A program made the translations under genes and the position numbers. The notes beneath the pieces were generated by a model. The model saw nothing but the letters and a program-made list of their open reading frames with translations, ran no database searches and was not told the DNA's origin. Of a stretch of DNA of 64,000 nt, positions 1 through 50,336 are shown in pieces; the first letter of the stretch is position 1, and every line of letters starts with the position of its first letter. Source of the stretch: an uncultured Bacilli bacterium (GTDB lineage: Bacteria > Bacillota_I > Bacilli_A > RF39 > UBA660); contig CANQYE010000002.1 of the NCBI GenBank assembly GCA_947627995.1, forward strand, positions 8,444 to 72,443, written 5' to 3'.

Positions 1-980
1 TAGTTTCAGATGGGGCATTAACCGTATTTGAAGCAAATATATAAGGTGAAGAAGACTCTCCTTTCATATTAAAGTATTCTTTAATAAAATTACTATTAGC
101 AAATCTATCTTCTCCAACTGTAGACATATAATTAATTGAATTTAAGTTTATTTTACTTTCATCCGCATCTTCAAATAATCCAAGTGCAAGCCCTGCAAAA
201 TAATCTGCTGAACTTTTTTCCCAGAATGGATCATTTTTATTTCCTTGATCATATAAAATATTTGCTGCTACGTCTTCCAATAACTCAACTGCTTTATCAA
301 CATTACCTTCTTTATATAACTTATAAGGTAAAATTAAAGGATTCCAAGCGTTTCCTTTTTCTGGTTCACGAAAATTTAAAACAACGATTTTATATCCTTT
401 TTCCTTTAAACTATTAGCTGCTCCTTTATATAATTCTGCTTTTGGATCGGTAATAATCATTGATTCTCCATGTTTTCCTAGTAAATTAACCATTGGTTTT
501 ACTATAGTTTCAGATTTACCAGAACCAGTCGAACCAATAACTAAATTATGATATTCTCCATTATCAACATAAATATTAGTTCCATCGTTTATTAAAGGAA
601 TACCTGCAGCTGTTGTATTCTCAGATAACGGGCTAACAAGTTCTATATCTTTATCTTCTGTTATTTCTTTCTTTGTAGCCCATCTACTATATCCTTTTTC
701 ATCTTTTTCACCAAAAGATAAACCTATTCCTTTACCTTTTTCTTTATCAAAAATATAAGATGATACACTTGTAAAAATTACTATTAATGCCATTGTAAAA
801 AACGTCATTGTTGCAGCAAAATATTTTCTACCAAAAGCTGGAAAAGGATTTATACCATAAAATTCGCCATCAGAAGAAAATTTAGCAAAATTTAAAACAC
901 CTATTGCACATAAATACAACAAAAAAATACAAAAAATAATAAACATTATAAAATCTTTTTTTGATACCTTAAATTTCATG
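1..980 (-). CDS. Type IV secretion coupling protein (VirD4/TraG/PcfC family), N-terminal part; C-terminus lies beyond the window start
   Basis: Translated by hand from the reverse strand. ATG at 980 with GGAGG RBS at 982-992. N-terminal TM helices, then Walker A 'VIGSTGSGKSETIVKPMV' and 'ITDPKAELY', diagnostic of the TraG/VirD4 family. Absent from the ORF track because it is truncated. Confidence 0.75.
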
Positions 981-1016
981 GTATTTCCTCCAAAACTACT
1001 TAAATTATACTAAAAA

Positions 1017-1841
1017 TTAATCTAAAGTACAACTCTTTAATTCTTTAAATTCATTTCCAATATTTTGATATATATAATGACACGTTCCTATTAAACTATA
1101 GTAAGTGCAAGAAATAATATATTCATCATTACCATCCTCATCAAAATCTACAATCCCATGTAAACTTGGACTGCACATATTTAAAGACTCATCACCATCA
1201 TTAATATCTTCTAAAATATAAGAAATCTCGTTTTCATTATTTATTGTAAATATCAAATTAAAAGCATTAGTTTCGTTTTCTTCACTTAAAGCATTACTAA
1301 TTATATATATAATCTTATCATTATAAATATATTTTAATTTATTTATATTTTGACTATTAATATTTTTTTGTAAAAGTTCATCATTAATTATATTATTATC
1401 ATTTTCATTCAATTCACTTTGCTCAAATTGTTTTATTTTATAACTAATGTCGCCAGAAAACGCCATGATATTATTGTTAAAACTATAAAAATTATTATTA
1501 TCATCATAAAATTTATACTCGTCATTATACATAACTTGGTAATTATTAATAAATTTGTTATTTTCATACAAAGAAAATTTTAAATTAGAATAAGCCGTAT
1601 CGCCTTTTATATTATTAAAATAGCTATTTACATACTTTAATCTTGTGTGAGGATTTAGTAAAATTATTAATTTTTTTTCCTTTTCATTTTCCGTAGAGTT
1701 TTTATTTTCGCTATCAACACTTATATTTGTATTTAAATTATTTTTTGTATTTAAATAAATTAAAAATATACCACCATAAATAACTAAACTAATTACAACC
1801 ACTACAATAATTTTAATATTTTTTTTCATACGACCTCCCAC
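1017..1841 (-). CDS. N-terminally membrane-anchored Asn-rich protein, T4SS-associated (possible VirB8/PrgL-like)
   Basis: 274 aa with a single N-terminal TM helix and an Asn/Tyr-rich extracytoplasmic domain. It sits between the hydrolase and the T4CP, as PrgL does in pCF10-type loci. No motif recognised. Confidence 0.3.
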   Translation of the reverse strand: MGGRMKKNIKIIVVVVISLVIYGGIFLIYLNTKNNLNTNISVDSENKNSTENEKEKKLIILLNPHTRLKYVNSYFNNIKGDTAYSNLKFSLYENNKFINNYQVMYNDEYKFYDDNNNFYSFNNNIMAFSGDISYKIKQFEQSELNENDNNIINDELLQKNINSQNINKLKYIYNDKIIYIISNALSEENETNAFNLIFTINNENEISYILEDINDGDESLNMCSPSLHGIVDFDEDGNDEYIISCTYYSLIGTCHYIYQNIGNEFKELKSCTLD

Positions 1842-1846
1842 GTTTT

Positions 1847-3793
1847 TTAAGTACTACTTATATCTTCAATCCTATAGCAGAGAGCTTTTTTTATACCAGT
1901 ATATCGATCACTAAATTTAGTATAATTCGTTGCTGGATCCCACATATATATTTCTTTATCTGTTGTTCGATAATTATCAATCGCAACCCAGTGTTGATTA
2001 ACTTTATCCCCTCTTACACTTGCAACAATATAACATCCTTCATTTATCATCTCTTTAATACGCTTAGCATCCAATAGCACACCGAATTGTTCACTACGGC
2101 TAAGACTTTCATTATAAATAAAATTTGGTGCTACATATTTTGCATAGCTATAATCTTCTAATACTCCACCTTCTCCAAAAGAGCCTTTTTTTCTCATCAA
2201 CGCTATAGCTGTTTTAGGTGTCAAATCTCCCTCTAACTCGCTGCTCAGTTGCGCTTTACTATTTGCAATTTGGATTGTAATCGAAGTTGCCAAACATCCT
2301 TGATTTCCTATTGTACATTTGCTACATGTTCCAACTTTATCATTTGCCCACTTAGAATCATCTTGTCGCCAATATTGAAAATCACCTAAATTTATAGTTT
2401 GATCATTTACAGCATGATCACAAGAAAATGTCCTAACAGTACTTGCATTATCGCCATAAACATTTTTTAATATTTCTGTATAATCTTTCCCATTATCAGC
2501 TAAATTAATGAATTGATTTTGTGTATCAGATTTAAACCCAACATGAGGTATATTATTGCTATTATCAAGCATTACTTTACCAACAACTTCCATTGCAATA
2601 TTTGTATAAGTGTCAATAACTTCTTGACTTAAAGCATTTTTCCAAATAGTAGCTCCAGAAGTGTTAGAATTTATTTCTGGTGAGTATAAAGAAACATCGC
2701 CTCTATTAAAACGATATATATCTTTTGTATAATCCCAATATACTTGGTCATTTTCACAAGCCCGCATTCGAATTATACCGTCGTTTTTATTTAATCCATA
2801 AAAACAATTACTACTATCACCTGGACACATACTTTCATTTCTTGTTAATGTAAAATTTCTAATAGCAATAAGCTGGGCCTTTAAAGCTTCTTCATCCACA
2901 GTACCAATCTCCGCTAAAGCAACACCTAGTATATATTTTTCTAAAGGTATTTGTTCTAAAACTTTATAATTATCTTTCGTTGCATCACAATTAACTAATT
3001 CTACTTGCAAATTGTCATAATCGTAGCCATTAATATTATAAGAACATGCTGCTCCGGCTACCCCTGAGCTTCCCGACGTATTATCTTCTGAAGTATTTGA
3101 AGCCTCTCCACCTAAAGCAGGAATTATTAAAATAAGAGCTACAACAAAACAAGCCACTCCTAAGATTAAAAATAAAGGATGTCTAATTATTTTTATAATA
3201 TAAGATTTAAATTTAATAACTTTATTAATTTGTTTTTTTACATTATGATTTTCCTTTGATTTATTGGATTTCTTAGTATCCGAATCTCCATTTTTATCAT
3301 TTATACTTTCATTTGAAGCGATTTTATTTGATAGACTATGATTACTATTGCTATTTTTAGAACTAGCATTTTTTTGACTTAAATATTCTTTTTTTTCTAA
3401 ATTATCAGTATTTGGTTTAATGACTGAACTTTTAGAATTTATTATTTTACTTTTTAAGTTATTGCTGGGTGACAATATATTTTTACTATTTTTAGCAGCT
3501 TTATCTGCTATTGGTTTTGGTACCCCAACTGATTGTAATAAAGTTGATGAGATTTTTTTTTCTGCATCATTAGTAGTACTGGCTTTATATTTGTCATCAT
3601 TTAGAGTATTAACTTTTTTAAAATTATTATCATTTCTAACCCCATTATGTGACGAATTATAAAGCTCATCTGCTTCTGGACTATAAAATTCATTTTCTAA
3701 ATTTTTATATTTATTTTCACTGCCAAAAGAAGACACATTATGTCCTCCTTCATTATTATTGGAACTATGTTTATATTTTTCTTCTTCTGGCAT
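1847..3793 (-). CDS. T4SS-associated cell-wall hydrolase (VirB1/PrgK/CwlT functional analog), membrane-anchored
   Basis: 648 aa. Low-complexity N-terminus, one TM helix (LFLILGVACFVVALILIIPAL), a large extracellular domain, and a C-terminal Cys..His papain-like/CHAP-like segment (EGCYIV...NQHWVAID). Directly downstream of VirB4, as in Gram-positive conjugation loci. Confidence 0.45.
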   Translation of the reverse strand: MPEEEKYKHSSNNNEGGHNVSSFGSENKYKNLENEFYSPEADELYNSSHNGVRNDNNFKKVNTLNDDKYKASTTNDAEKKISSTLLQSVGVPKPIADKAAKNSKNILSPSNNLKSKIINSKSSVIKPNTDNLEKKEYLSQKNASSKNSNSNHSLSNKIASNESINDKNGDSDTKKSNKSKENHNVKKQINKVIKFKSYIIKIIRHPLFLILGVACFVVALILIIPALGGEASNTSEDNTSGSSGVAGAACSYNINGYDYDNLQVELVNCDATKDNYKVLEQIPLEKYILGVALAEIGTVDEEALKAQLIAIRNFTLTRNESMCPGDSSNCFYGLNKNDGIIRMRACENDQVYWDYTKDIYRFNRGDVSLYSPEINSNTSGATIWKNALSQEVIDTYTNIAMEVVGKVMLDNSNNIPHVGFKSDTQNQFINLADNGKDYTEILKNVYGDNASTVRTFSCDHAVNDQTINLGDFQYWRQDDSKWANDKVGTCSKCTIGNQGCLATSITIQIANSKAQLSSELEGDLTPKTAIALMRKKGSFGEGGVLEDYSYAKYVAPNFIYNESLSRSEQFGVLLDAKRIKEMINEGCYIVASVRGDKVNQHWVAIDNYRTTDKEIYMWDPATNYTKFSDRYTGIKKALCYRIEDISST

Positions 3794-3812
3794 ACATCAT
3801 CACCTATAATTT

Positions 3813-5597
3813 CTAAAATCCACCACCAGATCCAAAAGAATCTAATTCTTCTTGAGTTGCAATTACATTGATGCGCATACGTCTACTTCCACAGACAAAT
3901 AAGGCTTCTCCTTGATTAAAGTATTTAATATTTTCTTGTTCATTCTCATTTAAATCAATTAATCTCGCTAAATCGTCTATAGCTTGTTTACGCAAGCCCA
4001 TTACTAAGTAATAAGAAGCATTATCAAATATTGCTTTTCCATGTGTAATAATATTTGGAGCAGCAAAGTCAGTTGGTTGTTGAGTTATTATAATTGTTCC
4101 TGTATTGTATTTACGACTACGTCTTTGAATTTGTGCTAAAAATTCTGCACCTAATTCATTTCTACTGCTAAGTAAAACATGAGCTTCATCAACACACATT
4201 ATTGTATTAACATCTTTATCCAAACATAAACCCCAAGCATATTTCAAAATATTAAAAAATAATGCATTTCTAATTGATTCATCAGAATTCATAAGTTCTT
4301 TTATATTAAAAACAATAAAATCACTATTAAACTTAATTGTAGTATGGCCATTGAAATAGTATCTTAATTCTTTAATAAGAGGTCGAACTTTAAGTTCCAA
4401 TCTCTCCATTACATCTTTCTCTTGAGAATGTTCAGGCATAGATAACAATCTACCTTTAATAGTTGCATACACATCATCAAAAGTTGGATAATCTTCTGAT
4501 TTAAACTTTCTAAAGTCAGTATCAAAATCAATTCTATATCTTTTATATGTATCTTGAACAACCTCACTAAATAATGTTAAAACATCATCTTCAATACTTG
4601 GGGAATAATATTTCATAAAAGCTTTTAATTGTTGAATTGTTCTTGTTAAAACAGTATAGCCTAATCCTTGAGCCATTTCTTCTTCATCCGCATCTACAAC
4701 CACTTCTAAAGGATTTATCATTCCAAAGTCTCCACCTTTACCAAGGTCTATTGAATCTCCTCCAAGTATTCTTGTCATTTCCTTTAATTCATCCTCAGGA
4801 TCAATGGCTACAATTTTATATCCATTGCGAATATGACTACGAAGTAATAATTTAGCTACCGTAGATTTACCACTACCAGAAGTTCCTAATATTATCATGT
4901 TAGCATTATTTCTATTATGCTCTTTTTTAATTTGATATAAAAATTGATTGAATAATATTACCCCACCAGAAAAATCTTGACCAAGCAATGTAGATAAGCC
5001 CGGATCTTTGATGCTATCAAAAACAAAAGGATACATTGCAGCTAAAGTAACTGAAGGAATAGGTGTTCCAATACGTTCTTCGATATCTTGCTTTGGAAAA
5101 ATAGGAATAATAGATTTTAAGACTTTTTCTTGTTCAAACATTAAAGAGGTTGCACGTATTCCCATTGCATCAAGATAGCTTCTAACTTGCATTTTCTTTA
5201 AATCAAGTTCTTCTTTGGAATCAGCAGTAATCATTAAGTGCATTTGAAAATCAAATATTCGAGCTTGAGTAGAAGCTAACATTTGAACAAATTGTTCTAA
5301 TGATTCGTAATCTTGACGTATTCTTTCTTGAATTGTTATATCTCTTTCATTTTGGTACTTTTGCTTTAAATCAGCAATTTCTTTATTAATCATTCTTGAT
5401 AAAGATGAAAATGCAATAGGTATATGTTTAATAACCATTTTAACACCAGATATACTAGTGACATTAGATAAATAACCATGACTAATATATTTTGGATAGT
5501 TAATAACTGAAAGTATAGTAGCATGTTTATCACTTATTATAAAATCACTTGTTTTAAATTCTATGCCCTTAGGAGCAATTTCACTTTTTAATTTCAT
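3813..5597 (-). CDS. VirB4/TrbE/PrgJ-family conjugal transfer ATPase (C-terminal ATPase part)
   Basis: 594 aa. Walker A 'ILGTSGSGKST', Walker B 'IMCVDEAHVLL' and an FtsK/VirB4-like DUF87 architecture. The start overlaps the stop of the upstream ORF as ATGA. Confidence 0.7.
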   Translation of the reverse strand: MKLKSEIAPKGIEFKTSDFIISDKHATILSVINYPKYISHGYLSNVTSISGVKMVIKHIPIAFSSLSRMINKEIADLKQKYQNERDITIQERIRQDYESLEQFVQMLASTQARIFDFQMHLMITADSKEELDLKKMQVRSYLDAMGIRATSLMFEQEKVLKSIIPIFPKQDIEERIGTPIPSVTLAAMYPFVFDSIKDPGLSTLLGQDFSGGVILFNQFLYQIKKEHNRNNANMIILGTSGSGKSTVAKLLLRSHIRNGYKIVAIDPEDELKEMTRILGGDSIDLGKGGDFGMINPLEVVVDADEEEMAQGLGYTVLTRTIQQLKAFMKYYSPSIEDDVLTLFSEVVQDTYKRYRIDFDTDFRKFKSEDYPTFDDVYATIKGRLLSMPEHSQEKDVMERLELKVRPLIKELRYYFNGHTTIKFNSDFIVFNIKELMNSDESIRNALFFNILKYAWGLCLDKDVNTIMCVDEAHVLLSSRNELGAEFLAQIQRRSRKYNTGTIIITQQPTDFAAPNIITHGKAIFDNASYYLVMGLRKQAIDDLARLIDLNENEQENIKYFNQGEALFVCGSRRMRINVIATQEELDSFGSGGGF

Positions 5598-6163
5598 TGA
5601 CCAATCACCGTCCCAAAATTAGAACTTACACTTCCATTAAAGAAGTTGTCTAAAAGCATACGCATATCATTATTTGAAACTTGAGAAGAATTTAATCCAC
5701 AAGCTGCTAAATTACTAATAAGATTTTGAATACGTTTTTGAATAATTTCCATCCTCTTTTCTTTAAAAAGAATAAAATATTCAGTATCGACTACATTTAC
5801 TTGTGTACTCATAAATGTATTAGCTTTTTCAATATCTTGCATTATAATTTTACGAATAGGATTGCTAGTAGTATTATTATATAATACTTGCAATTGTGAT
5901 AAGTAAACATTGATATCTACTGGTCGATCAGCTACAATAAGCCAAAACTCATAATCAATTGAATTATAAAAATTACGAAAATTAAATATTACATTATTTT
6001 CAGTAGATTGATCTAAGATAAAAATATTTTTTGGTTCAACTTTGATTCCTGTTACATATTCGCCGCTATCTAATTGAATCATTCCATTCATTATTCCTTT
6101 AACCGGAACCCAGTCTTCACTATATTTAGAACTATTTGTTTTCTTTTTCTTCATAACTAGCAC
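5594..6163 (-). CDS. VirB4 N-terminal-domain-like protein (split VirB4?)
   Basis: 189 aa with no TM helix. Its stop overlaps the ATG of the VirB4 ATPase (ATGA). The two together total about 783 aa, the length of full-size Gram-positive VirB4s (PrgJ/TcpF). Confidence 0.4.
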   Translation of the reverse strand: MLVMKKKKTNSSKYSEDWVPVKGIMNGMIQLDSGEYVTGIKVEPKNIFILDQSTENNVIFNFRNFYNSIDYEFWLIVADRPVDINVYLSQLQVLYNNTTSNPIRKIIMQDIEKANTFMSTQVNVVDTEYFILFKEKRMEIIQKRIQNLISNLAACGLNSSQVSNNDMRMLLDNFFNGSVSSNFGTVIGQ

Positions 6164-6449
6164 ACCAACCTTTCCATATATATTTTCTTCTCGTCGTTAA
6201 ATACTTATATATAATAAATATTAAATTCATAATATTATGATAATTAGGTACAGGAAGAACTAAAAATCCTGTAATTAATGCTGGAGACAATATTCCTAAC
6301 ATAACCCAAATATTGTTATTTCCGGCAAAGAATAATAATATCATTGTCGTTACGCATCCTAAACCAAAAACTAGCAAATCAATTGGCCTAAAAAAACTTA
6401 ATATTAATTGTGACTTTTTCGAGTTTGCTGGAATTAAATAATTATTCAC
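6132..6449 (-). CDS. VirB3/PrgI-like small membrane protein
   Basis: 105 aa, two-TM hairpin, immediately upstream of VirB4 in the canonical VirB3-VirB4 order. Confidence 0.45.
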   Translation of the reverse strand: MNNYLIPANSKKSQLILSFFRPIDLLVFGLGCVTTMILLFFAGNNNIWVMLGILSPALITGFLVLPVPNYHNIMNLIFIIYKYLTTRRKYIWKGWCASYEEKENK

Positions 6450-6466
6450 CCTTTTATTCCTCCTTA

Positions 6467-9034
6467 TTATTTTTTATCTAAGCTTGATGAGCTACTACCC
6501 GAAGTTGGAGCTGACCCTCCTCCAGAACTTATTTTTGACATTGCTTCTGTCCACTTTTCATATTGTTTAACCATATTTTCTTCTTCTTCTGCTTTTCCAG
6601 TAGCTCTTTGTCTACTCATGGCTTTAAATAAATCGCTATTTTCATCCACAATAGATCCATACTCTTTTCTAATTTCATCTCTGTCTTCTTTAATACCATC
6701 AGCATATTTTTTAGAAATTCTTTCAATCTCTGAATCAACTTTTATATTAATTGCATCTCTATCATTAAGTTGATTTCGAACCTTTTGCAATTCACTAACA
6801 AGTTCATTATGACGTCTTTTATTCTCAACATATTCCATCAATTCTGGATTATTTTTTGCAAAAATAGGATCATTTTTCATGCTATCAATTTTTTCACGGG
6901 CATAAGCTTTTTCATAATTTGTACGAGTAGCATCAAATTGTTCAGGTGTAATATAACCACGTTCTAATTGATTAGCGGCCATATCATTAGCTCTTCTAAT
7001 AACATCAGGGTCATTCATAAAGTTTCTAAACATTTCAGATCCTTCAAAATTATTAATATTAGCATTTAAATTATCTATTTCAGGTTGAATTTGATTTTCC
7101 CTTAATCGAACTTCATTTTCAAGTGCATTCATTATTTTAGATCTAACTGTGTTTTCCAATGTCATATACTCTGCCTGTTTTTTCCACGCTGCAATTACTT
7201 TATCATTATTAAGGATTGCGTCATTTTTAATAGATTTATTTGTTTTGCCTGCTTCTTCTTGCATTTTACTTGCAAAAGATTGACCACCAAAAATACCTGG
7301 ACTTCCTTTATAATCATGTGGATTATAAGAATGATAAAGCTTATCTTTTTGTTTTTTAAATTGTCTTCCGCCACCGGCAGTTCCAGCCAAAAATCCACTT
7401 CTTAATCCTTTTTTGAAATCGCCATTTCTTAAACCAACTAATCCTCCGCCTAAAGCTCCTGAAACACCACCTTCTACAGCATCTATTCCTTTTCTTATTG
7501 GTTTTCCAACAAATGCAGCTTCAGATAATTTATCTTTAATTCCTTTAAAGCTTAGGCTTTCTAATCCAAACATTGTAGAAATTAATTTAGGTGCTTGTTT
7601 AATAAATGTTAATATTCCTAGAATAACTAAAACTCTAGCGAAACTTAATACACCAAATGAAGCTGAACCAACATAATTTGTACTAAATAAGTCACTATTT
7701 GTTCCCCAAACACTTAAATCTGGCAACATAATAATTATATATATTCCAAAAAATACTATAGCTATTTTTAAAAACACTTCAACAAATGTTGTAATAGTAG
7801 ATTTTAACCAGTTATTAAAAATTGTTTCTTTGCCCGGTATTAATCTAGTTAAAATTGGAATTGGAGCAATAATTTGATAAAATGCTATTTTAACACTTCT
7901 TACAGCCATATCTATAGCAAATGATATAAGAATATAAACAAGATATAATCCGGCAATTAGCGCCATAAACCAATGGAATTCCATCATCCCAGATTGAATC
8001 ACTGGAGCAAATCTATTATAGATAGAAAAATCTTGATTGATTAACGCATATGTATATGCCGTATCCAATGAATAAAAATTAGAATTTGTAAAATAGTCTT
8101 CTATTCCATTTCCAGCAATGAACCCAGCGACTGTTCCACCTGCTGTTAGCAAACCTGCGACTCCCAACGAAATTCCACCAGTTGGAACAGCAAGTGCTAT
8201 CGCTATAACAGTTCCAACTCCACCAACAATAGTTCCGAACCATGCCCCCCAACCAGTTGACGGTTCTTTAATCCTATAAAAGCATTGATTTTTATTTTGA
8301 GCATAGTCAGGAAGCATTTCTCCTTCTACTATTTCAAAGCTATCATCTGAAAAATCTTCTCCATCACCCGCATAATAGTAACATTTGGTATCATCATCCA
8401 TATCATCATAAGTTGCTGTTTGTAATCCATTTTCGTCAACTTCCCCTACATCTGCAGTCAAACCATATGTATCATTAAAAAAACTTGAAAAAACGTCTAA
8501 AGCCATTTTAGTGCCAGCTATTGATAAAACATTGTTAGCCGTAGTTTCGCTATTATTTTCTTCATCTAATTCTCCGGTAATTGCATTAGCTGTATCGGCA
8601 ATTTCAGAGTAATCATGACCACCTAAAACAATCTTCCCTATAATATTTCCTTCCAAAATTGCATTTTGAAAATCATACATGTAAGAAAAAACTGTATTAA
8701 ACAATGCTAACATTATAATAGTGGTTATTAGTTTTTTAAAAATATCAGAAGTGTTTTTTAATGCATCATTAGGATTTACAATAGCTTTTATAATAACAAA
8801 CGCAACAACAAATAAAGCGATTATCCCTATTATCGTTTCTATTCTTCTACAAAAAGTTTGAATTTGTTCATTGTTTAAAACTCGCGCAGAACATATAGCT
8901 AAAAAAACTTGATATATCCAATCAATTATACCAAATATTCCACGTACTAGCCACATTACTATATTTATGAATGCAATACCAATAGCATCACCAATTAAGC
9001 CTAATGTACTAATCATATTAAACACTCCTTGCAT
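6467..9034 (-). CDS. VirB6/TrbL/PrgH-TcpH-like polytopic membrane protein with long coiled-coil C-terminal extension
   Basis: 855 aa. At least 6 TM helices in the N-terminal half, a glycine-rich GxxG stretch, then a hydrophilic C-terminal half with heptad-like repeats and an S-rich tail. Sits upstream of VirB3/VirB4. Confidence 0.45.
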   Translation of the reverse strand: MQGVFNMISTLGLIGDAIGIAFINIVMWLVRGIFGIIDWIYQVFLAICSARVLNNEQIQTFCRRIETIIGIIALFVVAFVIIKAIVNPNDALKNTSDIFKKLITTIIMLALFNTVFSYMYDFQNAILEGNIIGKIVLGGHDYSEIADTANAITGELDEENNSETTANNVLSIAGTKMALDVFSSFFNDTYGLTADVGEVDENGLQTATYDDMDDDTKCYYYAGDGEDFSDDSFEIVEGEMLPDYAQNKNQCFYRIKEPSTGWGAWFGTIVGGVGTVIAIALAVPTGGISLGVAGLLTAGGTVAGFIAGNGIEDYFTNSNFYSLDTAYTYALINQDFSIYNRFAPVIQSGMMEFHWFMALIAGLYLVYILISFAIDMAVRSVKIAFYQIIAPIPILTRLIPGKETIFNNWLKSTITTFVEVFLKIAIVFFGIYIIIMLPDLSVWGTNSDLFSTNYVGSASFGVLSFARVLVILGILTFIKQAPKLISTMFGLESLSFKGIKDKLSEAAFVGKPIRKGIDAVEGGVSGALGGGLVGLRNGDFKKGLRSGFLAGTAGGGRQFKKQKDKLYHSYNPHDYKGSPGIFGGQSFASKMQEEAGKTNKSIKNDAILNNDKVIAAWKKQAEYMTLENTVRSKIMNALENEVRLRENQIQPEIDNLNANINNFEGSEMFRNFMNDPDVIRRANDMAANQLERGYITPEQFDATRTNYEKAYAREKIDSMKNDPIFAKNNPELMEYVENKRRHNELVSELQKVRNQLNDRDAINIKVDSEIERISKKYADGIKEDRDEIRKEYGSIVDENSDLFKAMSRQRATGKAEEEENMVKQYEKWTEAMSKISSGGGSAPTSGSSSSSLDKK

Positions 9035-9119
9035 TATAATAATTATAACATAAAAAAATTTAAATAAAATAGAAAAATTAATTAAAAAACATTATAATAA
9101 AAATTATAATATCTTTGTT

Positions 9120-10445
9120 TTAAAAAACACCACAAAATGGACTTGTTTGTCCTATTATATTAAGTAAAAATTGTAATACCATCGGCAACAAAAATAATGA
9201 TATAGCTAATATTAATCTTATCATAAAATTTTTACTTTCTTTTTTTAATGCATCATTATCTTGAGATAAAAGTGCCATTAAAAATCCCACTGCACTTAAT
9301 ACTATAACTAATATTGGAGCTGCAATTTTAAAAATATCAAATATTTTATTTAAAATATAAGCTACGGATCTTGACCCATCAGAATTTACAGATTTATTTA
9401 CATCGCCAAATAACCCTTCACACGATTCATCATATGCAAAATCAGCATTACCAGCTTTATGATTAGATTTTATAGTGAATTTTTCTGCCAATGATTCTAA
9501 ATTATTATTAACTTCTTTCTTAGATTCTGCAAGTGTATCTTTTAAGTTTTCTTTTTCATTTTTAGTCATGTTATTACTAGTATCAATCTTTTTATCACAT
9601 AGATCTTTATTTTTTTCTACATCCTGTTGTAAGCTTTCTATTTCATTTAAAAAAGTTGTGGATATTTTTTTGTTTTTGCTAAGAATGGTTTGAAATAAAG
9701 TATTATTTATATTATAACTATTAGTAAATGAAGATAATAATTTATCTGTATTAGATACTTCTTGCATTAGATTATTAAAACTTTTACAAAATACACTAGC
9801 ACCTTTTTCTAATACACTACTCAAATTTTTTTCAATAAAATTATTAAAAAATTCCTTAATATTATCCGCAACATCATCTTCATAATCATAATGTAACTGG
9901 TCATTATTTTCTTTAGAACGTTTATAACACCAGCTTCCTTCAAAATTTGCTGATTGTTGTATGTATGTTAAATTTTTGCATTCATCTTGATTTTCTGCTA
10001 TACACACAATTGGAGTGTCAGTAGAAATTCTTGCAAATTTTGGACACTGATAACTCTTAAGCTTTTTCTGAGCGCTTTCACTTATGAAATACGTACTACT
10101 TATTTCATTTTTAAAATTTAAATTATCAGATTTAGCATTACCAGTACCATAAGTAAAAGTATTCCACTCGGCACTTATTGCACCATCTTTATTTAAAAAT
10201 AAACTGACTGTCCCACAACGTGCAGATTCGTTTCCAGGACATGTCATTGAACTTACAATACCAACATCAGGTGTCCATATTGTTCTATATTCGCACATTT
10301 TTATACAATCACCATTTTTTTCACAATCTCTACTAATATATTTACATGATGTTGATGTAGTATCTGCATTAACTACATTAATATTAATTAACATTATAAT
10401 TAATGAAAAAAATATAAGACCAATATATTTTAATCTACTTTTCAT
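9120..10445 (-). CDS. Secreted cysteine-rich protein with C-terminal two-TM anchor (unknown function; T4SS operon member)
   Basis: 441 aa. Signal peptide (MKSRLKYIGLIFFSLIIMLININVVNA), more than 14 Cys in the first 180 aa, a coiled-coil middle and two C-terminal TM helices. Confidence 0.35.
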   Translation of the reverse strand: MKSRLKYIGLIFFSLIIMLININVVNADTTSTSCKYISRDCEKNGDCIKMCEYRTIWTPDVGIVSSMTCPGNESARCGTVSLFLNKDGAISAEWNTFTYGTGNAKSDNLNFKNEISSTYFISESAQKKLKSYQCPKFARISTDTPIVCIAENQDECKNLTYIQQSANFEGSWCYKRSKENNDQLHYDYEDDVADNIKEFFNNFIEKNLSSVLEKGASVFCKSFNNLMQEVSNTDKLLSSFTNSYNINNTLFQTILSKNKKISTTFLNEIESLQQDVEKNKDLCDKKIDTSNNMTKNEKENLKDTLAESKKEVNNNLESLAEKFTIKSNHKAGNADFAYDESCEGLFGDVNKSVNSDGSRSVAYILNKIFDIFKIAAPILVIVLSAVGFLMALLSQDNDALKKESKNFMIRLILAISLFLLPMVLQFLLNIIGQTSPFCGVF

Positions 10446-22273: not shown

Positions 22274-23170
22274 TCAATCCTTATCTAATTCAATATTTAA
22301 AATTTGTAAAATTCTTTCTAAATCTTTATCTGAATCAAATGGAATATCAATTTTTTTATTGCTAATCTTTACCTTTGTTCCAATTTTTTCTCTTAAAATT
22401 TTTTCGTAAATAGCATATTTTAGACTAGGTAACTCTTTTCTTTTTAATTTTACTCTTTTTGAAATATCTTCGCCACTTATTAATTTTTCAATATCTCTAA
22501 CAGATAAATGTTCTTTAATAACTTTACCTAAAATTTCTTCTTGTGTTTCATAACTTTCTATTTTGCTAATGGCACGAGCATGACTCATAGATATTTCGTT
22601 TTTTAAAATACTTTCTTGTACTTTATTGGATAAATTTAATAAGCCAAGCATATTAGTAATATAACTACGACTTTTGCCAAATTTTGTCGCTAACTCTTCT
22701 TGAGTAATACCATTTGTTTTAATTATAATATCATATGCTCGCGCTTCTTCTATAGCATTCAAATTTTCTCTTTGAATATTTTCAATTAAAGCAATTTCCA
22801 TCATTTGCTCATCATCAAAATCTCTTATGATTGCAGGAATTTTAGTAAAACCAGCAAGTTTAGCTGCCTTTGTTCTTCTCTCTCCAGCGACAAGTTCATA
22901 ACCTTTAATACTTTTTTTAACAATAATAGGTTCAATTATGCCGTGTTCTTTGATTGATAAAGAAAGTTCTTTTAATTTTTCTTCATCAAATGTTTTTCTT
23001 GGTTGGTATGGATTACTTCTAATTTCATTTAAAGGTATTTTTATAATATCTTGTTCCGTTGCATTTTTGACAATATTTTTTTCAAATTCATTAAAGTCTA
23101 AACGCTCATTAGTAAATAATTGTTCTAATCCTTTACCTAATGCTTTTCTTTTAGTTTCCACTTCTTTCAA
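22274..23170 (-). CDS. spo0J: Chromosome partitioning protein ParB/Spo0J
   Basis: 298 aa 'NPYQPRK...LVAGERR...IENIQRENL', with an HTH 'GKSRSYITNMLGLLNL'. Downstream of soj. Confidence 0.85.
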   Translation of the reverse strand: MKEVETKRKALGKGLEQLFTNERLDFNEFEKNIVKNATEQDIIKIPLNEIRSNPYQPRKTFDEEKLKELSLSIKEHGIIEPIIVKKSIKGYELVAGERRTKAAKLAGFTKIPAIIRDFDDEQMMEIALIENIQRENLNAIEEARAYDIIIKTNGITQEELATKFGKSRSYITNMLGLLNLSNKVQESILKNEISMSHARAISKIESYETQEEILGKVIKEHLSVRDIEKLISGEDISKRVKLKRKELPSLKYAIYEKILREKIGTKVKISNKKIDIPFDSDKDLERILQILNIELDKD

Positions 23171-23936
23171 TCACTTCCTTTGCTAAATTAAAGTAAGCTT
23201 CTGTAGCTTTACTTTTTGGATCATATTCACATATTGGTTTTCCATGGCTTGGAGCTTCTACTAGTCTTACGAGTCTTGGAATTATTGTATTAAAAACTTT
23301 ATCTTTAAAATATTTACGTACTTCTTCAACAACTTCTATTCCTAAATTAGTTCTTGCATCAAGCATTGTTAATAATACGCCACCTATCTTTAAATTAGGA
23401 TTTAATTCAGATTGAATCATTATAACTGAATTTAATAATTGTGTAATTCCCTCTAAAGCAAAAAATTCACATTGAACAGGAATAATAATGGAATCACTAG
23501 CAACCAGAGCATTATTAGTCAAAATACCTAATGTTGGCGGACAATCAATAATTATATAATCATAAAAATCTTTTATTCTTGAAAGTATATTTTTCAATTC
23601 TTCATATTGATTAAAATCATCATCAGTATAAAATTTTTTAATTAATTCAACGTCCAATCCGGCTAAAGATATTGTTGCAGGAATAACATCTAAATTTTTA
23701 AATTCCGTTTGAATAATAGCCTGTTCAATTTGACATTTTTCAGTTAAAACTTGATATATGTCATGTGGCATATCGCCTTTATTTAATCCAACACCAATAG
23801 AAGTATTACCTTGTGGATCTAAATCAATTAATAAAGTTTTCTTGTTCAATCTTCCTAAAGATGAAGCTAAATTTATACTTGTTGTCGTCTTGCCAACTCC
23901 ACCTTTTTGATTAACAAGAGAAATTATAGTTGCCAT
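23151..23936 (-). CDS. soj: ParA/Soj chromosome partitioning ATPase
   Basis: 261 aa with a deviant Walker A 'NQKGGVGKTTT'. Confidence 0.9.
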   Translation of the reverse strand: MATIISLVNQKGGVGKTTTSINLASSLGRLNKKTLLIDLDPQGNTSIGVGLNKGDMPHDIYQVLTEKCQIEQAIIQTEFKNLDVIPATISLAGLDVELIKKFYTDDDFNQYEELKNILSRIKDFYDYIIIDCPPTLGILTNNALVASDSIIIPVQCEFFALEGITQLLNSVIMIQSELNPNLKIGGVLLTMLDARTNLGIEVVEEVRKYFKDKVFNTIIPRLVRLVEAPSHGKPICEYDPKSKATEAYFNLAKEVIERSGN

Positions 23937-25931: not shown

Positions 25932-27266
25932 TTAATTATACTTTATTATTATATCATGTTTTTCGTTTTTTTCTTTATCAAATTTTGATTTTTTTACACC
26001 AGCTATCCATAATATCCTATTTTTGCTATCAGTAACAATAGGAATTGTATCTCTTTTATTTAATTCTATTTTATTATCTATAAAAATATCATTTATTTTT
26101 TTAGTGCCAGAAAGATTTTTTACAGCTATACGATCTCCATTTTGCCGATATCGAACTTTTAATGGCAACAATATTTCAGAAGAATCAAGTCTTAAAACAT
26201 AATTAGATTTTTCCTCACTTTTTTTTATTTTCTCTAATTTTTTACCATTATTTAATATTACCTTTTCTTGAAAAATAGTTATTGAATTGTTATGAAAAGT
26301 ATCAAATTTATTAAAATAAAGATTATTATAACTTTTAGTAATTACTAGACTTGGTAAATTTATTTTACTATTTTGCTTTTTGCTTTCAATTAATTTATAA
26401 ATTTCTTCAACATGTTTTTCATAAATAAGATAGATATTATCACCATATATATTATATAAAATTTCTTCAATTATGTATTGCTGCAATATTTTTTCTTGCA
26501 TTAGGAATTTATCTATTTTTAAAACACCATCTTTATAGACTTCTTCTAATTTTTGCATAGCCAATTTATAAATAAATTCGTAATGTTCATTTATAATATC
26601 ACTAAATTTTTTAAATTTCAAATGAACATTTTTATCTTCTTGCTTCAAAAAAGGCAAAATAGACTTCCGATAACGATTTCTTGTATACTTATTACTTGTA
26701 TTAGATTTATCTATAACATAAGGTATATCATTCTTTTTTAAATAATTTATTATTTCTTCTTTAGTTTTATTTATAAGAGGTCGATATAGTATATAATTGT
26801 CCCTTTTTGTTAGTTCCTTAAATCCTAAATATCCATAAAATCTACTGCCTCTTACCAACTTCATCAATATAGATTCTATTAAATCGTCTCCATGATGAGC
26901 AGTAAATAAAAAATTAGCATGGTATTTTTGAATTATTTTTTCAAAAAAATCATAACGAATATTTCTGGCTTCTTGATGAAAGTTATTTTCATTATATTTT
27001 TCAATTTTCAAATATTCATAAATTACGTTGTTTTCTTTGCAATATTTTTCAACAAATATGGCCTCTTCATCACTTTCTTTCCGAACATTATGATTAACAT
27101 GTGCAACAATTATTTTAATTGCTTTTGCTTTTCTAACTTGTATTAACAAATTAAGTAAGCACATAGAATCAGGCCCTCCTGAAACACAAGCAACTATTTT
27201 ATCATTATCATTTACTAAATTTATAATCTTTTTTATTATATTTTCCATATAAATCACCTTTTTCAT
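25932..27266 (-). CDS. tilS: tRNA(Ile)-lysidine synthetase
   Basis: 444 aa with the PP-loop 'ACVSGGPDSMCLL'. Located upstream of ftsH, as in B. subtilis. Confidence 0.85.
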   Translation of the reverse strand: MKKVIYMENIIKKIINLVNDNDKIVACVSGGPDSMCLLNLLIQVRKAKAIKIIVAHVNHNVRKESDEEAIFVEKYCKENNVIYEYLKIEKYNENNFHQEARNIRYDFFEKIIQKYHANFLFTAHHGDDLIESILMKLVRGSRFYGYLGFKELTKRDNYILYRPLINKTKEEIINYLKKNDIPYVIDKSNTSNKYTRNRYRKSILPFLKQEDKNVHLKFKKFSDIINEHYEFIYKLAMQKLEEVYKDGVLKIDKFLMQEKILQQYIIEEILYNIYGDNIYLIYEKHVEEIYKLIESKKQNSKINLPSLVITKSYNNLYFNKFDTFHNNSITIFQEKVILNNGKKLEKIKKSEEKSNYVLRLDSSEILLPLKVRYRQNGDRIAVKNLSGTKKINDIFIDNKIELNKRDTIPIVTDSKNRILWIAGVKKSKFDKEKNEKHDIIIKYN

Positions 27267-27981
27267 AAATAACTTTTTTTAGATACAGGCCTTCAGCGGG
27301 TGCTATTGAAGAAGAGATTTTTTTATTACAATTAATTAATTCTTCTATATATTTTAAATCTTTTTTATTTAATCCTACATCTACCAAGGCTCCGACTAAA
27401 TGCCTGACCATATATTTATAGAAACATTTGCCAACAAATATAATATTTATTTCTTCTTTTTTTCGAAATATTTTTATTTTATAAATTGCACTATTATAAT
27501 TATCTCTTTTTCCTGAAACAAAGTTTTGAAAATTATGATAACCAAGTAAAATTTTACTAGCTTTTTTCATCAATTTCAAATCCAGTTTATATGGAATATA
27601 CCATTTATAATCATCTGTAAATGCACTTCGCTTAGTTGTTATTTTATATAGGTATACTTTACTTCTTACATTAAATCTAGCGTGAAAATTATTTTTAACT
27701 TCTATACATCTAGTTATATAAATATGCTCAAGTCTTTTATTTAACATATATTTTAATTTATCAGCCGGAAGAAAAAAATTCAAATCAAAATGGGCAGCTT
27801 GATTTATTGCGTGAACTAATGCATCTGTTCTACCTGATCCTTTAATAAATGTTTTTTCTTTATTTATTTCACTTATTGCTTCTTCTAATTTCTGTTGGAC
27901 AGATGCTTTATCCTTTTGTCTTTGAAATCCGTTAAAATGACTTCCATCATACTCAAAAAAAATTAAATATCTATAAGACAT
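27208..27981 (-). CDS. truA: tRNA pseudouridine(38-40) synthase TruA
   Basis: 257 aa 'IFFEYDGSHFNGFQRQ...GSGRTDALVHA' with the catalytic Asp motif. Confidence 0.85.
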   Translation of the reverse strand: MSYRYLIFFEYDGSHFNGFQRQKDKASVQQKLEEAISEINKEKTFIKGSGRTDALVHAINQAAHFDLNFFLPADKLKYMLNKRLEHIYITRCIEVKNNFHARFNVRSKVYLYKITTKRSAFTDDYKWYIPYKLDLKLMKKASKILLGYHNFQNFVSGKRDNYNSAIYKIKIFRKKEEINIIFVGKCFYKYMVRHLVGALVDVGLNKKDLKYIEELINCNKKISSSIAPAEGLYLKKVIYEKGDLYGKYNKKDYKFSK

Positions 27982-28768
27982 CTCGATACACCGCTTTTAT
28001 TAAATCTAAAAGATTATCATAATAATTCATTTTAATACCTTTTTTTTGTAACAAATGGACAAATTCCACTATTTCAGGTATATCTATATACTTTGAAATA
28101 TTTTTGTCGTATATATAATTTTGATTTCTTTTTTTTATATTATCTTTTGATAATATGTATATATTATCAACAAAATTTAAAAGGAAATTACTATTATTAG
28201 TAATTATAATAAATGTTTTATTAAACTTATTTTTGAGTTTTTTTATAAGTAACTGTAAATTCTTTTTTTCTATTTCGTTAAAATGATTATCAAAATGATC
28301 AAAAACTATAATTTGAGGATTTAAAATTAAAGTTGATGCCAATAAAATTTTTTTTACTTCATTTAATGATATATCACTAAATTTTTGGGTTAAAATGTCT
28401 TCTCTCAAACCAACCATTTTTAAAGCATCTAATATCTTTTTTTCACTAACTGTTTTTCTAGAATTTTTTTTGCAGTATAATTTTAAAAATGTGTACACTG
28501 AATAGGAAAGGTTATACTTTGTAATATCATCAAATAATACACAAACTTTTTCATTTAACAAAGAATAGTCTGTTTTTATAGAGTCTTTATTTAATTGTAA
28601 ATCATCTATTAAAATCTCCCCTGATTCAATATTAATATTTCCTGCTAAAACATCTGCAATAATATTTGCTTTTTCACCAATTATTCCATTTATTTTATTA
28701 TCTTCAATTTCAAAGTTAAGCTCATTTTTATAATCACTTATTTTTAAACATTTAAATTTTATTTCCAT
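27971..28768 (-). CDS. Degenerate ABC/ECF-type ATPase-like protein (EcfA-like fold, all catalytic motifs lost)
   Basis: 265 aa aligning to the ABC NBD layout with substitutions. Walker A becomes 'GIIGEKANIIADVLAG', the signature becomes 'ISLNEVKK', Walker B/D-loop becomes 'IIVFDHFDNHFN' and the H-loop becomes 'IIITNNSNF'. The EcfA-like C-terminal tail is retained. Sits in the conserved ecfA-ecfA'-(ecfT)-truA position. Confidence 0.5.
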   Translation of the reverse strand: MEIKFKCLKISDYKNELNFEIEDNKINGIIGEKANIIADVLAGNINIESGEILIDDLQLNKDSIKTDYSLLNEKVCVLFDDITKYNLSYSVYTFLKLYCKKNSRKTVSEKKILDALKMVGLREDILTQKFSDISLNEVKKILLASTLILNPQIIVFDHFDNHFNEIEKKNLQLLIKKLKNKFNKTFIIITNNSNFLLNFVDNIYILSKDNIKKRNQNYIYDKNISKYIDIPEIVEFVHLLQKKGIKMNYYDNLLDLIKAVYRDVL

Positions 28769-29256
28769 AAAGTATTTATCAGCTCCTCACTATTAAGGTA
28801 TAATTTATCAATCAAGCCATAATAATTTAATTGAATTGATAAATCAATTATAAAAGGCAATTTAATTCCTAATCTTTTAAGTATCTTTTCTTCTTTTAAA
28901 ACTGATAGCGTAGGCCCTTCAATAGCGATTTTATTTTTATTTAATACAATTAAATAATCACTAAACATTATTTCTTCATTATTTGAAGATGTATAAACAA
29001 GTTTTTTCTTTTTTTGTTTTAAAGTGTTAAATAATATTTGCTTTTCTCGTTTATTCAAATAAAGTAGGCAATCATCAATAAAAAATCTATCATAATTCGC
29101 ACATAATTTTTTAAAATTGTTTAAATCAAAACTGAAATTATTAAAAAAGAAATAAGAATTTTTTTGAGTATAAAATTCATTAGATATAAATTCCTTTAAA
29201 TTAGAATCAGTACCAATAATACAAATAGATTTATATTCATTAAATATATTTGCCAT
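28759..29256 (-). CDS. Truncated, degenerate EcfA-like ATPase remnant
   Basis: 165 aa. A residual signature region 'LNKREKQ', an H-loop-like 'LVYTSS', and a C-terminal 'ILKRLGIKLPFIIDLSIQL' typical of the EcfA C-terminus. No Walker A and no RecA-like core. Overlaps the next gene by 10 nt. Confidence 0.4.
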   Translation of the reverse strand: MANIFNEYKSICIIGTDSNLKEFISNEFYTQKNSYFFFNNFSFDLNNFKKLCANYDRFFIDDCLLYLNKREKQILFNTLKQKKKKLVYTSSNNEEIMFSDYLIVLNKNKIAIEGPTLSVLKEEKILKRLGIKLPFIIDLSIQLNYYGLIDKLYLNSEELINTLWK

Positions 29257-29349
29257 AATATCACCCGTTTCATATTATTATACAAAAAATATAAAAAATA
29301 GCAATAAATATAAATAAAAATATTGATTCTTATAATCAATATTTTATTA

Positions 29350-29589
29350 TCAAACTAACCTTGTTGTTTTTCCCAATGATTTAACACTTTTTTGAGTTTT
29401 TTTATTTTGCTCTTTTCGAAATTCGATATAAGTGGAATTGTTTAGCACATCATCTTTTGAAATTAATCCCAATTTTAATTCATCGAGTAATATGCGTATT
29501 TCAATCATTTGCGCAGCTTTTTTTATAGCTAAAGTCGCAGAAGAAATCCTATCTCTTAAAGTTCCTAAATTCATATCAGAGTAATTCAT
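29350..29589 (-). CDS. Hypothetical small protein (79 aa)
   Basis: An ORF with RBS GGAGGAAAAT upstream. Predicted helical, no recognised motif. A palindromic terminator-like element lies downstream at about 29300-29335. Confidence 0.3.
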   Translation of the reverse strand: MNYSDMNLGTLRDRISSATLAIKKAAQMIEIRILLDELKLGLISKDDVLNNSTYIEFRKEQNKKTQKSVKSLGKTTRLV

Positions 29590-49880: not shown

Positions 49881-50336
49881 TCATTTATTTTTTCGTTGTC
49901 TTAATACGGATTCTAATCTTGTTGCTCTTAATATTTGATTATCTAAAATACCATAAGAAATATTAAATTTTATTTTTTGATTGTTTTTAAATTCAACGAC
50001 CATTTTTTCATCTTCTTTATAATAATTTATAATATTTTTTAAACTAATCCAATTACATTTTACTAAACGATTTGAATGTGTAGGAAAAAATATTATTTCT
50101 TTTGTTTCTTCTATTATTATTGGAACCTTATGTGTTACTCCTATGAGATTATATGTTCCTTTTTGTCTTCCTTTTAAACTACTACCAAAATATTGGCAAC
50201 TATCTTCCATAATTTTATTAGCAGATTTATTTATTTCAAAAGTATTATTTAATTCATAAACCATGCTATTTTTTTCATCGATTGGAATTATTGCTAATGT
50301 TTCTTCATTTATTTCATAATCAACCAAAAAACCCAT
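49881..50336 (-). CDS. comK: Competence transcription factor ComK homolog
   Basis: 151 aa. 'CQYFGSSLKGRQKGTYNLIGVTHKVPIII...IFFPTHS...CNWISL...ISYGILDNQILRATRLES' aligns with B. subtilis ComK ('CRFFGSSYAGRKAGTYEVTKISHKPPIMV...LFPTLS...CGWISH...ISYNSFENQVYRTAWLRT'). Confidence 0.75.
   Translation of the reverse strand: MGFLVDYEINEETLAIIPIDEKNSMVYELNNTFEINKSANKIMEDSCQYFGSSLKGRQKGTYNLIGVTHKVPIIIEETKEIIFFPTHSNRLVKCNWISLKNIINYYKEDEKMVVEFKNNQKIKFNISYGILDNQILRATRLESVLRQRKNK

Follow-up and report, generated by a model that had tools for sequence, protein, structure and literature searches.

The window analysed here, a stretch of 64,000 nucleotides from the genome of an uncultured Bacilli bacterium, carries on its reverse (-) strand two adjacent, overlapping open reading frames (ORFs) whose products resemble EcfA1 and EcfA2, the ATPases found in transporters of the energy-coupling factor (ECF) type. 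The first, the EcfA1-like ORF (A1-like; 28759..29256, 165 aa), encodes a miniature remnant of the nucleotide-binding domain followed by an intact EcfA-type C-terminal domain, and the second, the EcfA2-like ORF (A2-like; 27971..28768, 265 aa), encodes a full-length ATP-binding cassette (ABC) nucleotide-binding fold in which the catalytic motifs are all degenerate. The two ORFs share 10 nt (28759..28768, ATGGAAATAA), in which A1-like ends with W-K-stop and A2-like starts with M-E-I, an overlap that is expected to couple their translation. The stop of A2-like in turn overlaps the start of truA by 11 nt (27971..27981), and therefore there is no room between them for ecfT, the gene of the membrane partner. 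The downstream gene truA (27208..27981), apparently part of the same operon, encodes an intact tRNA pseudouridine38-40 synthase, which scores 169.6 bits against TIGR00071 (cutoff 142.85) and shows the GRTD motif with the catalytic Asp. All of these features lie on the (-) strand. An original prediction had placed two overlapping ECF-ATPase-like ORFs here with no ecfT between them and truA; ORF calls, NCBIfam profiles and Foldseek comparisons bear out the former, and the 11-nt overlap the latter.

Both products can be assigned to the ECF ATPases. A1-like matches only positions 179-269, the C-terminal third, of NCBIfam TIGR04520 (ECF_ATPase_1; E 1.7e-10, 40.8 bits, short of the cutoff of 315) and gave no match in a Pfam scan of the 165-aa protein. 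A2-like matches positions 23-264 of the 279 of TIGR04521 (ECF_ATPase_2; E 2.2e-21, 76.2 bits, short of the cutoff of 330) as well as Pfam ABC_tran (33 bits). AlphaFold2 models from family alignments are confident, with a predicted local distance difference test (pLDDT) score of 86.6 for A1-like and 83.4 for A2-like. In Foldseek searches of the PDB the A2-like model is closest to EcfA2/EcfA' chains (5d3m_B, 5jsz_B, 8bms_B, 7nnt_B; E 2e-18 to 2e-17, template modelling (TM) score 0.86-0.88) and the A1-like model to CbiO/EcfA chains (5x3x_A, 4mki_A, 8bms_A; E ~5e-8), while phmmer gives EcfA2 4mki_B as the best PDB match of A2-like. The best match of the A1-like family profile is Lactobacillus delbrueckii EcfA1 (8bmr_A, E 1.9e-32), in an alignment that reaches the C-terminus (MLKRIGLDIPF...LVQSLW in EcfA1 vs ILKRLGIKLPF...LINTLWK in A1-like) and includes the terminal LW. 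Both models terminate in two helices (135-145 and 156-164 in A1-like, 232-242 and 253-264 in A2-like). Canonical EcfA and EcfA' have two C-terminal helices each, and these come together as a four-helix bundle on dimerisation (PMC4245157). The EcfA-type C-terminal tail that had been claimed for the pair is thus present, in A1-like by its alignment to 8bmr_A and its predicted helices, and profiles and models alike indicate that the pair descends from EcfA1/EcfA2.

Catalytic motifs of the pair

Motif positions were taken from alignments to intact relatives and, for A2-like, to solved EcfA2. In A1-like the P-loop strand (29188..29226, residues 11-23, ICIIGTDSNLKEF) is recognisable with its Walker A destroyed, since it reads GTDSNLKEF where intact and short relatives read GxxGSGKT. 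The Q-loop is deleted and the signature motif is gone; the Walker-B remnant RFFIDDC (29068..29088) keeps its Asp and has Asp in place of the catalytic Glu, and the H-loop position YTSSN (28981..28995) has Ser in place of His. In A2-like the Walker-A position reads GIIGEKANII (28658..28687), without GxxGxGK[ST], and the Gln is lost from the Q-loop position VCVLFDDITKY (28514..28546). The signature remnant ISLNEVKK (28349..28372) corresponds to a clade consensus LSxxExKK instead of the canonical LSGGQ, the Walker-B remnant IIVFDHFD (28289..28312) keeps its Asp with His for the catalytic Glu, and the H-loop position IITNN (28193..28207) has Asn for His. Nowhere is the family better conserved than in the C-terminal domain of A1-like (28762..28905, residues 118-165, SVLKEEKILKRLGIKLPFIIDLSIQL..YGLI....LWK), and that of A2-like (27974..28081, residues 230-265, IPEIVEF...LLDLIKAVYRDVL) likewise ends in the two predicted helices. 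All these segments lie on the (-) strand.

Compared with intact EcfA1, A1-like shows one long alignment gap, which opens just past the P-loop and closes late in the helical subdomain. Going by the standard domain layout of ABC proteins, what is missing would be the antiparallel-beta subdomain, the Q-loop and the greater part of the helical subdomain. Model and alignment both retain the three core strands (those of the P-loop, Walker B and the H-loop) and the C-terminal domain in full, so the claim that the first ORF lacks most of the RecA-like core has to be withdrawn. The claim that every catalytic motif is lost stands for Walker A, the Q-loop, the signature, the catalytic Glu and the H-loop His, but not for the Walker-B strand and its Asp, which are the sole survivors in both proteins; no intact motif was found by alignment that could have been misread. 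Because Walker A, the Q-loop Gln, the signature, the catalytic Glu and the H-loop His are gone from both, the pair is predicted to be unable to hydrolyse ATP, and very probably it is also unable to bind it. A composite ATP site of the consensus, hydrolysing kind exists neither here, where neither site has a P-loop, nor in the degenerate relatives described below, which keep at most a single non-consensus site.

Conservation, erosion and selection in related gut Bacilli

Related loci were collected by scanning one genome per species for conserved C-terminal peptides from a 9-sequence alignment. The best 80 of 118 confirmed loci were retrieved and, together with 5 from exact look-ups, make up the 85 non-redundant loci analysed. 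The 80 scanned loci all come from gut metagenome-assembled genomes (MAGs) labelled uncultured Bacilli, Tenericutes or Erysipelotrichaceae, among them "Mycoplasma sp. CAG:956", "Coprobacillus sp. CAG:605", "Clostridium sp. CAG:609" and Candidatus Coprovivens, and we take them to belong to the GTDB orders RFN20 and RF39. The species of the window lies outside the best 80 of the 118 species-representative loci, among which the best match to its 165-aa protein is 55% identical. When 1.84 billion cluster representatives were searched exhaustively, this protein stood alone, the next match being 48% identical. The species itself is present in ENA, Logan and NCBI assemblies, with 283,879 bp as the longest contig, and the identical 165-aa sequence was found on 15 contigs.

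The gene order is strict. An A1-like gene is followed by an A2-like gene in all 85 loci, with the same 10-nt overlap in 67 of them, and truA then follows in 74, mostly with an ATGA overlap, after a gap of a few bases or behind the T-like gene described below; truA is found downstream in all but two of the loci that reach far enough. A census of the neighbourhood gave as recurrent neighbours only divIC upstream (57/85) and truA, rplM and rpsI downstream. In L072 (7689-10095) the ORFs, read directly, show the pair followed at once by rplM-rpsI with truA missing from the cluster, and in the related L062 a truA-like ORF was not detected after the pair, although here the ORFs were not read directly.

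Only one of the 85 loci, L007 on a metagenome contig, has all catalytic motifs together with an EcfT recognisable as Pfam CbiQ, and it shares the 10-nt A1/A2 overlap. Walker A of A2 and a canonical signature are each found in a single locus, while A1 has a Walker A in 61 loci, 49 of which are without EcfT. In the 84 degenerate loci, A2 is without Walker A, catalytic Glu and His and retains LSxxExKK. A1 has lost its signature and His throughout, and its catalytic Glu as well except at the aligned Walker-B position in L012, L013, L015 and L048, whereas the GxxxxGK[ST] of A1 is retained in 60 of the 84. Word-indexed searches gave a similar picture, namely a graded series of homologues in uncultured "Bacilli" MAGs that runs from intact EcfA1/EcfA2 over forms with Walker A only to motif-less forms of ~214 aa and finally ~149 aa. 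As the degenerate state is found in 84 of 85 loci whose proteins are only 40-55% identical to the window protein, it must be ancient.

Shortening has gone far in this clade: 15 A1 and 17 A2 proteins are below 200 aa, and the two small proteins of Clostridium sp. CAG:609 (L086) have no Pfam match. In a rough neighbour-joining (NJ) tree based on truA and the conserved parts of A1 and A2, A1 forms without Walker A fall in at least six separate places, which suggests that Walker A and the sequence N-terminal to the Walker-B strand were lost independently several times, with the C-terminal half always kept. Some parts are kept throughout: in A1 the strands of Walker B and the H-loop, the next beta-hairpin and the C-terminal helices; in A2 the first strands and the Walker-B strand, a short segment behind the Q-loop position, and the DALKMVGL, signature and C-terminal helices. 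The exhaustive search also gave short A1 proteins that combine the architecture of the window's A1-like with an intact P-loop (e.g., GNSGSGKT), namely P0244 (165 aa), P0248 (178 aa), P0356 (169 aa) and P0100 (170 aa), and therefore the internal deletion preceded the loss of the P-loop in the lineage of the window.

Selection was estimated by the method of Nei and Gojobori (NG86) as omega, the ratio of nonsynonymous (dN) to synonymous (dS) rates, in 23 chosen close species pairs after an earlier run of ~90 pairs, with medians taken only from comparisons with dS <1.5. The median omega is 0.19 for A1 (n = 21 pairs) and 0.20 for A2 (n = 20), far below 1 and similar to truA (0.15, n = 19), with a pairwise range of 0.02-0.50 for A1 and A2. 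Purifying selection persists in lineages without EcfT and where both proteins have shrunk to ~150-190 aa. Among such EcfT-less pairs, omega of A1 and A2 is 0.02 and 0.07 for L068/L073 (269 + 262 aa), 0.11 and 0.08 for L066/L074 (232 + 214 aa), 0.15 and 0.09 for the miniature L070/L086 (161 + 184 aa), and 0.11 and 0.08 for L019/L026 (149 + 189 aa). In most pairs change is slower in the last 57 codons of A1 than in the remainder of the gene. Over the 85 loci conservation peaks in A1 at VLKEEK.LKRLG..LPF.VDLSIQL..YGLI...LWK, and in A2 at LK.V.L, LS..E..K..LA and YFKKLF.KL as well as, at the C-terminus, P.I..F ... Y.D.KEL.KAIYR. The pair is a functional protein pair under selection across a large clade of uncultured gut Bacilli, about as strong as that on truA. 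Of the alternatives that the original prediction had offered, very recent decay is thereby rejected, and a non-catalytic role stands as far as a functional protein under selection.

That the two genes are decaying pseudogenes of a recently inactivated ECF module, open only for want of time, would fit the loss of all catalytic motifs, the deletion within A1, an A1-like protein in the window more eroded than its closest short relatives, and one frameshifted variant. The last, a 246-aa A2-like protein on the 5.4-kb ENA contig P0241, is shifted at an A8 run (~28035-28045) and has lost its last helices; this could reflect faulty assembly or a genuine loss-of-function allele. Apart from this variant the relatives have intact ORFs, in all 85 loci, and neither the frameshifts and stops nor the dN/dS near 1 expected of pseudogenes. 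Besides the age of the degenerate state, its occurrence in 84 of 85 loci, an omega of ~0.2 and the 15 contigs with the same 165-aa protein, polymorphism within the species argues against decay. L001, from the window's species, and the 99.45%-identical L002 differ by 7 synonymous and 2 nonsynonymous codon changes over both genes; as 18% of sites are synonymous, this has a binomial P of 1.7e-4 under neutrality. The frames are also too long to be open by chance, because the probability of meeting no stop at the local composition is ~1.5e-8 for A1-like and 4.6e-14 for A2-like and the remaining two coding-strand frames contain 14-42 stops, in agreement with the earlier argument that neutral ORFs of this length would gain stop codons. 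We therefore regard decay as very improbable; it is essentially excluded for the clade, and for the species of the window it is disfavoured.

The overlapping stop and start at both boundaries, and the ATGA-type overlaps with truA in most relatives, could also mean that the frames are kept merely as translated leaders, which would support the expression of truA or other downstream genes by coupling while the protein products are irrelevant. A leader could have any amino-acid sequence, but here omega stands at ~0.2 and the C-terminal domains hardly vary across the clade, and many loci show a small positive gap before truA rather than an overlap. The pair of L072 is followed by rplM-rpsI, and no truA-like ORF was detected after that of L062; these two loci make both an obligate link to TruA and a truA leader unlikely. 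On this evidence a leader function is hardly credible.

EcfT, candidate partners and chromosomal surroundings

In 68 of the 85 loci the A2-like gene is followed directly by truA or rplM and the operon is cleanly without ecfT, and a further 5 contigs end too early for a judgement. Eleven degenerate loci, which form one NJ subclade, carry between A2 and truA a gene for a 248-aa membrane protein (L008, L025, L027, L038, L039, L061, L071, L085 and L088 among them; 5969-6715 in L025). Pfam CbiQ does not recognise the members tested (L008, L025), but hhalign aligns the protein with EcfT over its full length (probability 99.7%, E 7e-27, 21% identity), and this T-like protein is thus a full-length, far-diverged homologue of EcfT. 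The first Arg of its coupling helices (ALRF motif) is replaced, and in place of the Arg of ASRG there is mostly Lys or some other residue. Purifying selection acts on the T-like protein, with an omega of 0.16-0.29 in three close species pairs (median 0.16). The locus L037 is nested in the T-bearing subclade and is without the T gene. The T-like gene beside dead pairs and its loss in L037 indicate that the ATPases died first and the T component was lost afterwards, probably more than once, and the repeated shortening of A1 and A2 appears to have come after the loss of T.

These loci bear on a further explanation, in which the pair still belongs to a membrane complex of the ECF type, with an EcfT or T-like protein and S-components encoded elsewhere in the genome, and the dead pair either caps a non-energised, facilitator-type vitamin uptake system or works beside another active ATPase. 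A dead motor with a T component does occur, as the 11 loci keep an EcfT homologue next to equally dead A1 and A2. Even the miniature forms of A2 retain the short segment just behind the Q-loop together with DALKMVGL, a helix of the helical subdomain; this region lines the groove where canonical EcfA' holds a coupling helix of EcfT. Genome-reduced organisms must import many nutrients, probably vitamins too. The hosts considered here have reduced genomes and lack several amino acid biosynthesis pathways (PMC7301438), which is in keeping with a need for uptake systems. However, relocation of EcfT in as many lineages as have lost it from the operon is unlikely, the region of A1 that matches the coupling-helix groove is wholly deleted in the short forms, that of the window included, and the T-like proteins themselves are without the first coupling-helix Arg. 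The window's locus has no ecfT, scans of the 64-kb window gave neither CbiQ nor any S-component family, and in ~1 Mb of flanks the gene strand showed no further EcfT-like ORF. On balance we consider a surviving membrane complex unlikely, if clearly less so than decay or a leader function.

The canonical order of ECF loci is A1-A2-(T)-truA, as in MMSYN1_0643-0640, which encode EcfA, EcfA', EcfT and TruA (PMC4993169). The position of the pair had been described as the conserved ecfA-ecfA'-ecfT-truA one; this holds for the gene order, whereas the chromosomal neighbourhood differs, being divIC ... tilS-ftsH near the origin and not rplQ ... rplM. The pair is part of a run of genes on the same strand that comprises mfd, spoVT, tatD, rsmA, yabG, veg, spoVG, yabP, yabQ, divIC, a 79-aa ORF, the pair, truA, tilS, ftsH and parAB. 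A1-like, A2-like, truA, tilS and ftsH look like one tightly packed transcription unit. Read from its first ATG (27266), the longest ORF of tilS shares 59 nt with the end of truA (27208-27266, -); with the start given in databases the overlap is 41 nt. A promoter-like sequence, TTGCTA-16-TATAAT (29277..29304, -), lies 20 nt upstream of the A1-like start; it is weak evidence (10/12 matches), and such sites are common in this AT-rich window (34 seen vs 25.6 expected), so that the scan for promoters and terminators is uninformative. The genome is Bacillus-like with ~25% GC and carries homologues of sporulation genes. Since dnaA and the switch in GC skew lie ~24 kb away, the window represents the origin-proximal region; its 39-64 kb part was annotated by Pfam scans.

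The 79-aa ORF (29350-29589, -) between divIC and A1-like has no Pfam, NCBIfam or PADLOC match; it has a strong promoter-like site of its own, TTGACT-17-TATAAT (29639-29611), and an AT-rich inverted repeat lies 3' of its stop. It was considered as a conserved partner of the pair and ruled out, being absent in the relatives checked (L005/L006) and without a corresponding family in the census of neighbouring ORFs of at least 70 aa. A role of the pair in defence was ruled out as well, as PADLOC gave only a weak, generic ABC-like match for A2-like (mad3, 26 bits) and none for A1-like or the 79-aa ORF.

Elsewhere in the window there are two ParB-family genes, one for a 433-aa ParB/HTH protein (59365-60666, +) to the right of the origin and one in a parA-parB pair (22274-23936, -) downstream of ftsH. 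A ComK homologue (49881-50336, -; Pfam ComK, E 5e-42) lies between dnaN and recF, an unusual position for a competence regulator. Positions 1-10445 (-) are occupied by a cluster of genes resembling those for conjugation and type-IV secretion, adjoining rpsF-ssb-rpsR. It includes a VirD4/TraG-type coupling protein that runs past the start of the window, a TraG/VirB4-like P-loop protein at 3813-5597, a TraC-like one at 5594-6163 and, at 6467-9034 and 9120-10445, large proteins without a Pfam match, and it is probably an integrative conjugative element.

A proposed inactive heterodimer and its relation to known systems

We propose that the pair is a catalytically inactive heterodimer derived from the EcfA1/EcfA2 motor, which would act as a nucleotide-independent scaffold or adaptor rather than as a transport motor, and we put the probability of this reading at about 0.7. 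A1-like and A2-like would pair through a C-terminal four-helix bundle as canonical EcfA and EcfA' do; a heterodimer of this type is suggested because the genes are strictly coupled 1:1 and the dimerisation element is their most conserved part. The pair would no longer energise transport and might serve as a pseudo-ATPase scaffold or adaptor for another partner. In relatives with a Walker A, the P-loop and Walker-B Asp of A1 would face the LSxxE of A2 without a catalytic base or His, and there the pair would probably hold ATP without turning it over and serve as a switch or glue. Such a single site, with Walker A and the Walker-B Asp and without catalytic base, His or proper signature, resembles the degenerate site of heterodimeric ABC exporters, which binds and does not hydrolyse ATP. 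As the species of the window has lost even this ATP-binding site, the selected function common to the clade would reside in surfaces that are independent of nucleotide. The partner may be a membrane protein unrelated to EcfT or far diverged from it or, less likely, the co-transcribed machinery for translation and tRNA modification (TruA, L13/S9).

Several observations weigh against a scaffold or adaptor. The neighbours of the pair in the census are all ordinary genes, and the absence of EcfT is established for this locus and the 64-kb window and not for the genome, to which none of the best 120 of 3768 matches in an EcfT profile search could be assigned. The NG86 estimates are rough where dS >1, and selection within the window's own species rests on 9 substitutions between strains. 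To these must be added the frameshift of P0241 and the state of the window's A1-like, which is the most eroded form known, its closest short relatives still having a Walker A, and which could be on its way out.

More tentatively, and at somewhat less than even odds, a whole clade of abundant gut Bacilli may have undergone an exaptation in which the ECF motor became a soluble pseudo-ATPase heterodimer with a role independent of transport, a switch that binds ATP and does not hydrolyse it in most species and a nucleotide-free scaffold in that of the window. The exapted pair might take part in growth-rate-linked processes encoded nearby, e.g., tRNA modification or the expression of ribosomal proteins. 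If this is true, no ABC nucleotide-binding-domain pair before it would have been shown to stay under selection with both ATP sites and the membrane partner gone.

Vitamin import in Firmicutes is mainly the work of ECF transporters, which are pursued as antibiotic targets and whose ATPases are treated as obligate motors. Where automatic annotation labels such genes "ECF transporter ATPase" or "ABC transporter ATP-binding protein", vitamin uptake is wrongly predicted for these organisms, and the smallest forms escape Pfam and are labelled hypothetical proteins. The natural deletion series (~270 -> ~210 -> ~150 aa) charts the smallest core that selection retains in an ABC nucleotide-binding-domain dimer. 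The clade also opens to testing a second, transport-independent activity of EcfA/EcfA', which could account for the observation, long noted and unexplained, that ecfAA'T is linked to truA and to ribosomal protein genes.

A full-text literature search found no description of a motif-less ABC nucleotide-binding-domain pair, of a degenerate or inactive EcfA/EcfA' or of ECF modules in RFN20/RF39, which is not proof of novelty. To our knowledge, ABC proteins in non-transport roles keep their active sites. With pseudoenzymes and pseudo-ATPases the pair shares a conserved fold, the loss of catalytic residues and strong purifying selection, and it differs from them in having no known regulatory target or partner. 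The closest known systems are EcfA1/EcfA2 of group II ECF transporters (Lactobacillus delbrueckii 5D3M/5JSZ, Thermotoga maritima 4HLU), with which it has in common the fold, the two-helix C-terminal element and the order A1-A2-(T)-truA. In contrast to these, the pair of the window is without Walker A, Q-loop Gln, LSGGQ, catalytic Glu and H-loop His, its A1 is internally deleted to 165 aa, and its operon is without EcfT. A single degenerate site is well known from heterodimeric ABC transporters such as TM287/288, TAP1/2, CFTR and MRP1 (PMC7756269). In these transporters, however, one site is always of the consensus, hydrolysing kind and the membrane domains are kept, whereas of the 85 loci here 84 have entirely lost the second site and most carry no gene for a membrane partner beside the pair, and the pair of the window is without any P-loop. 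In our assessment, what is new in comparison with all of these is an ABC nucleotide-binding-domain pair that is maintained by selection after the loss of both sites and, mostly, of the membrane partner.

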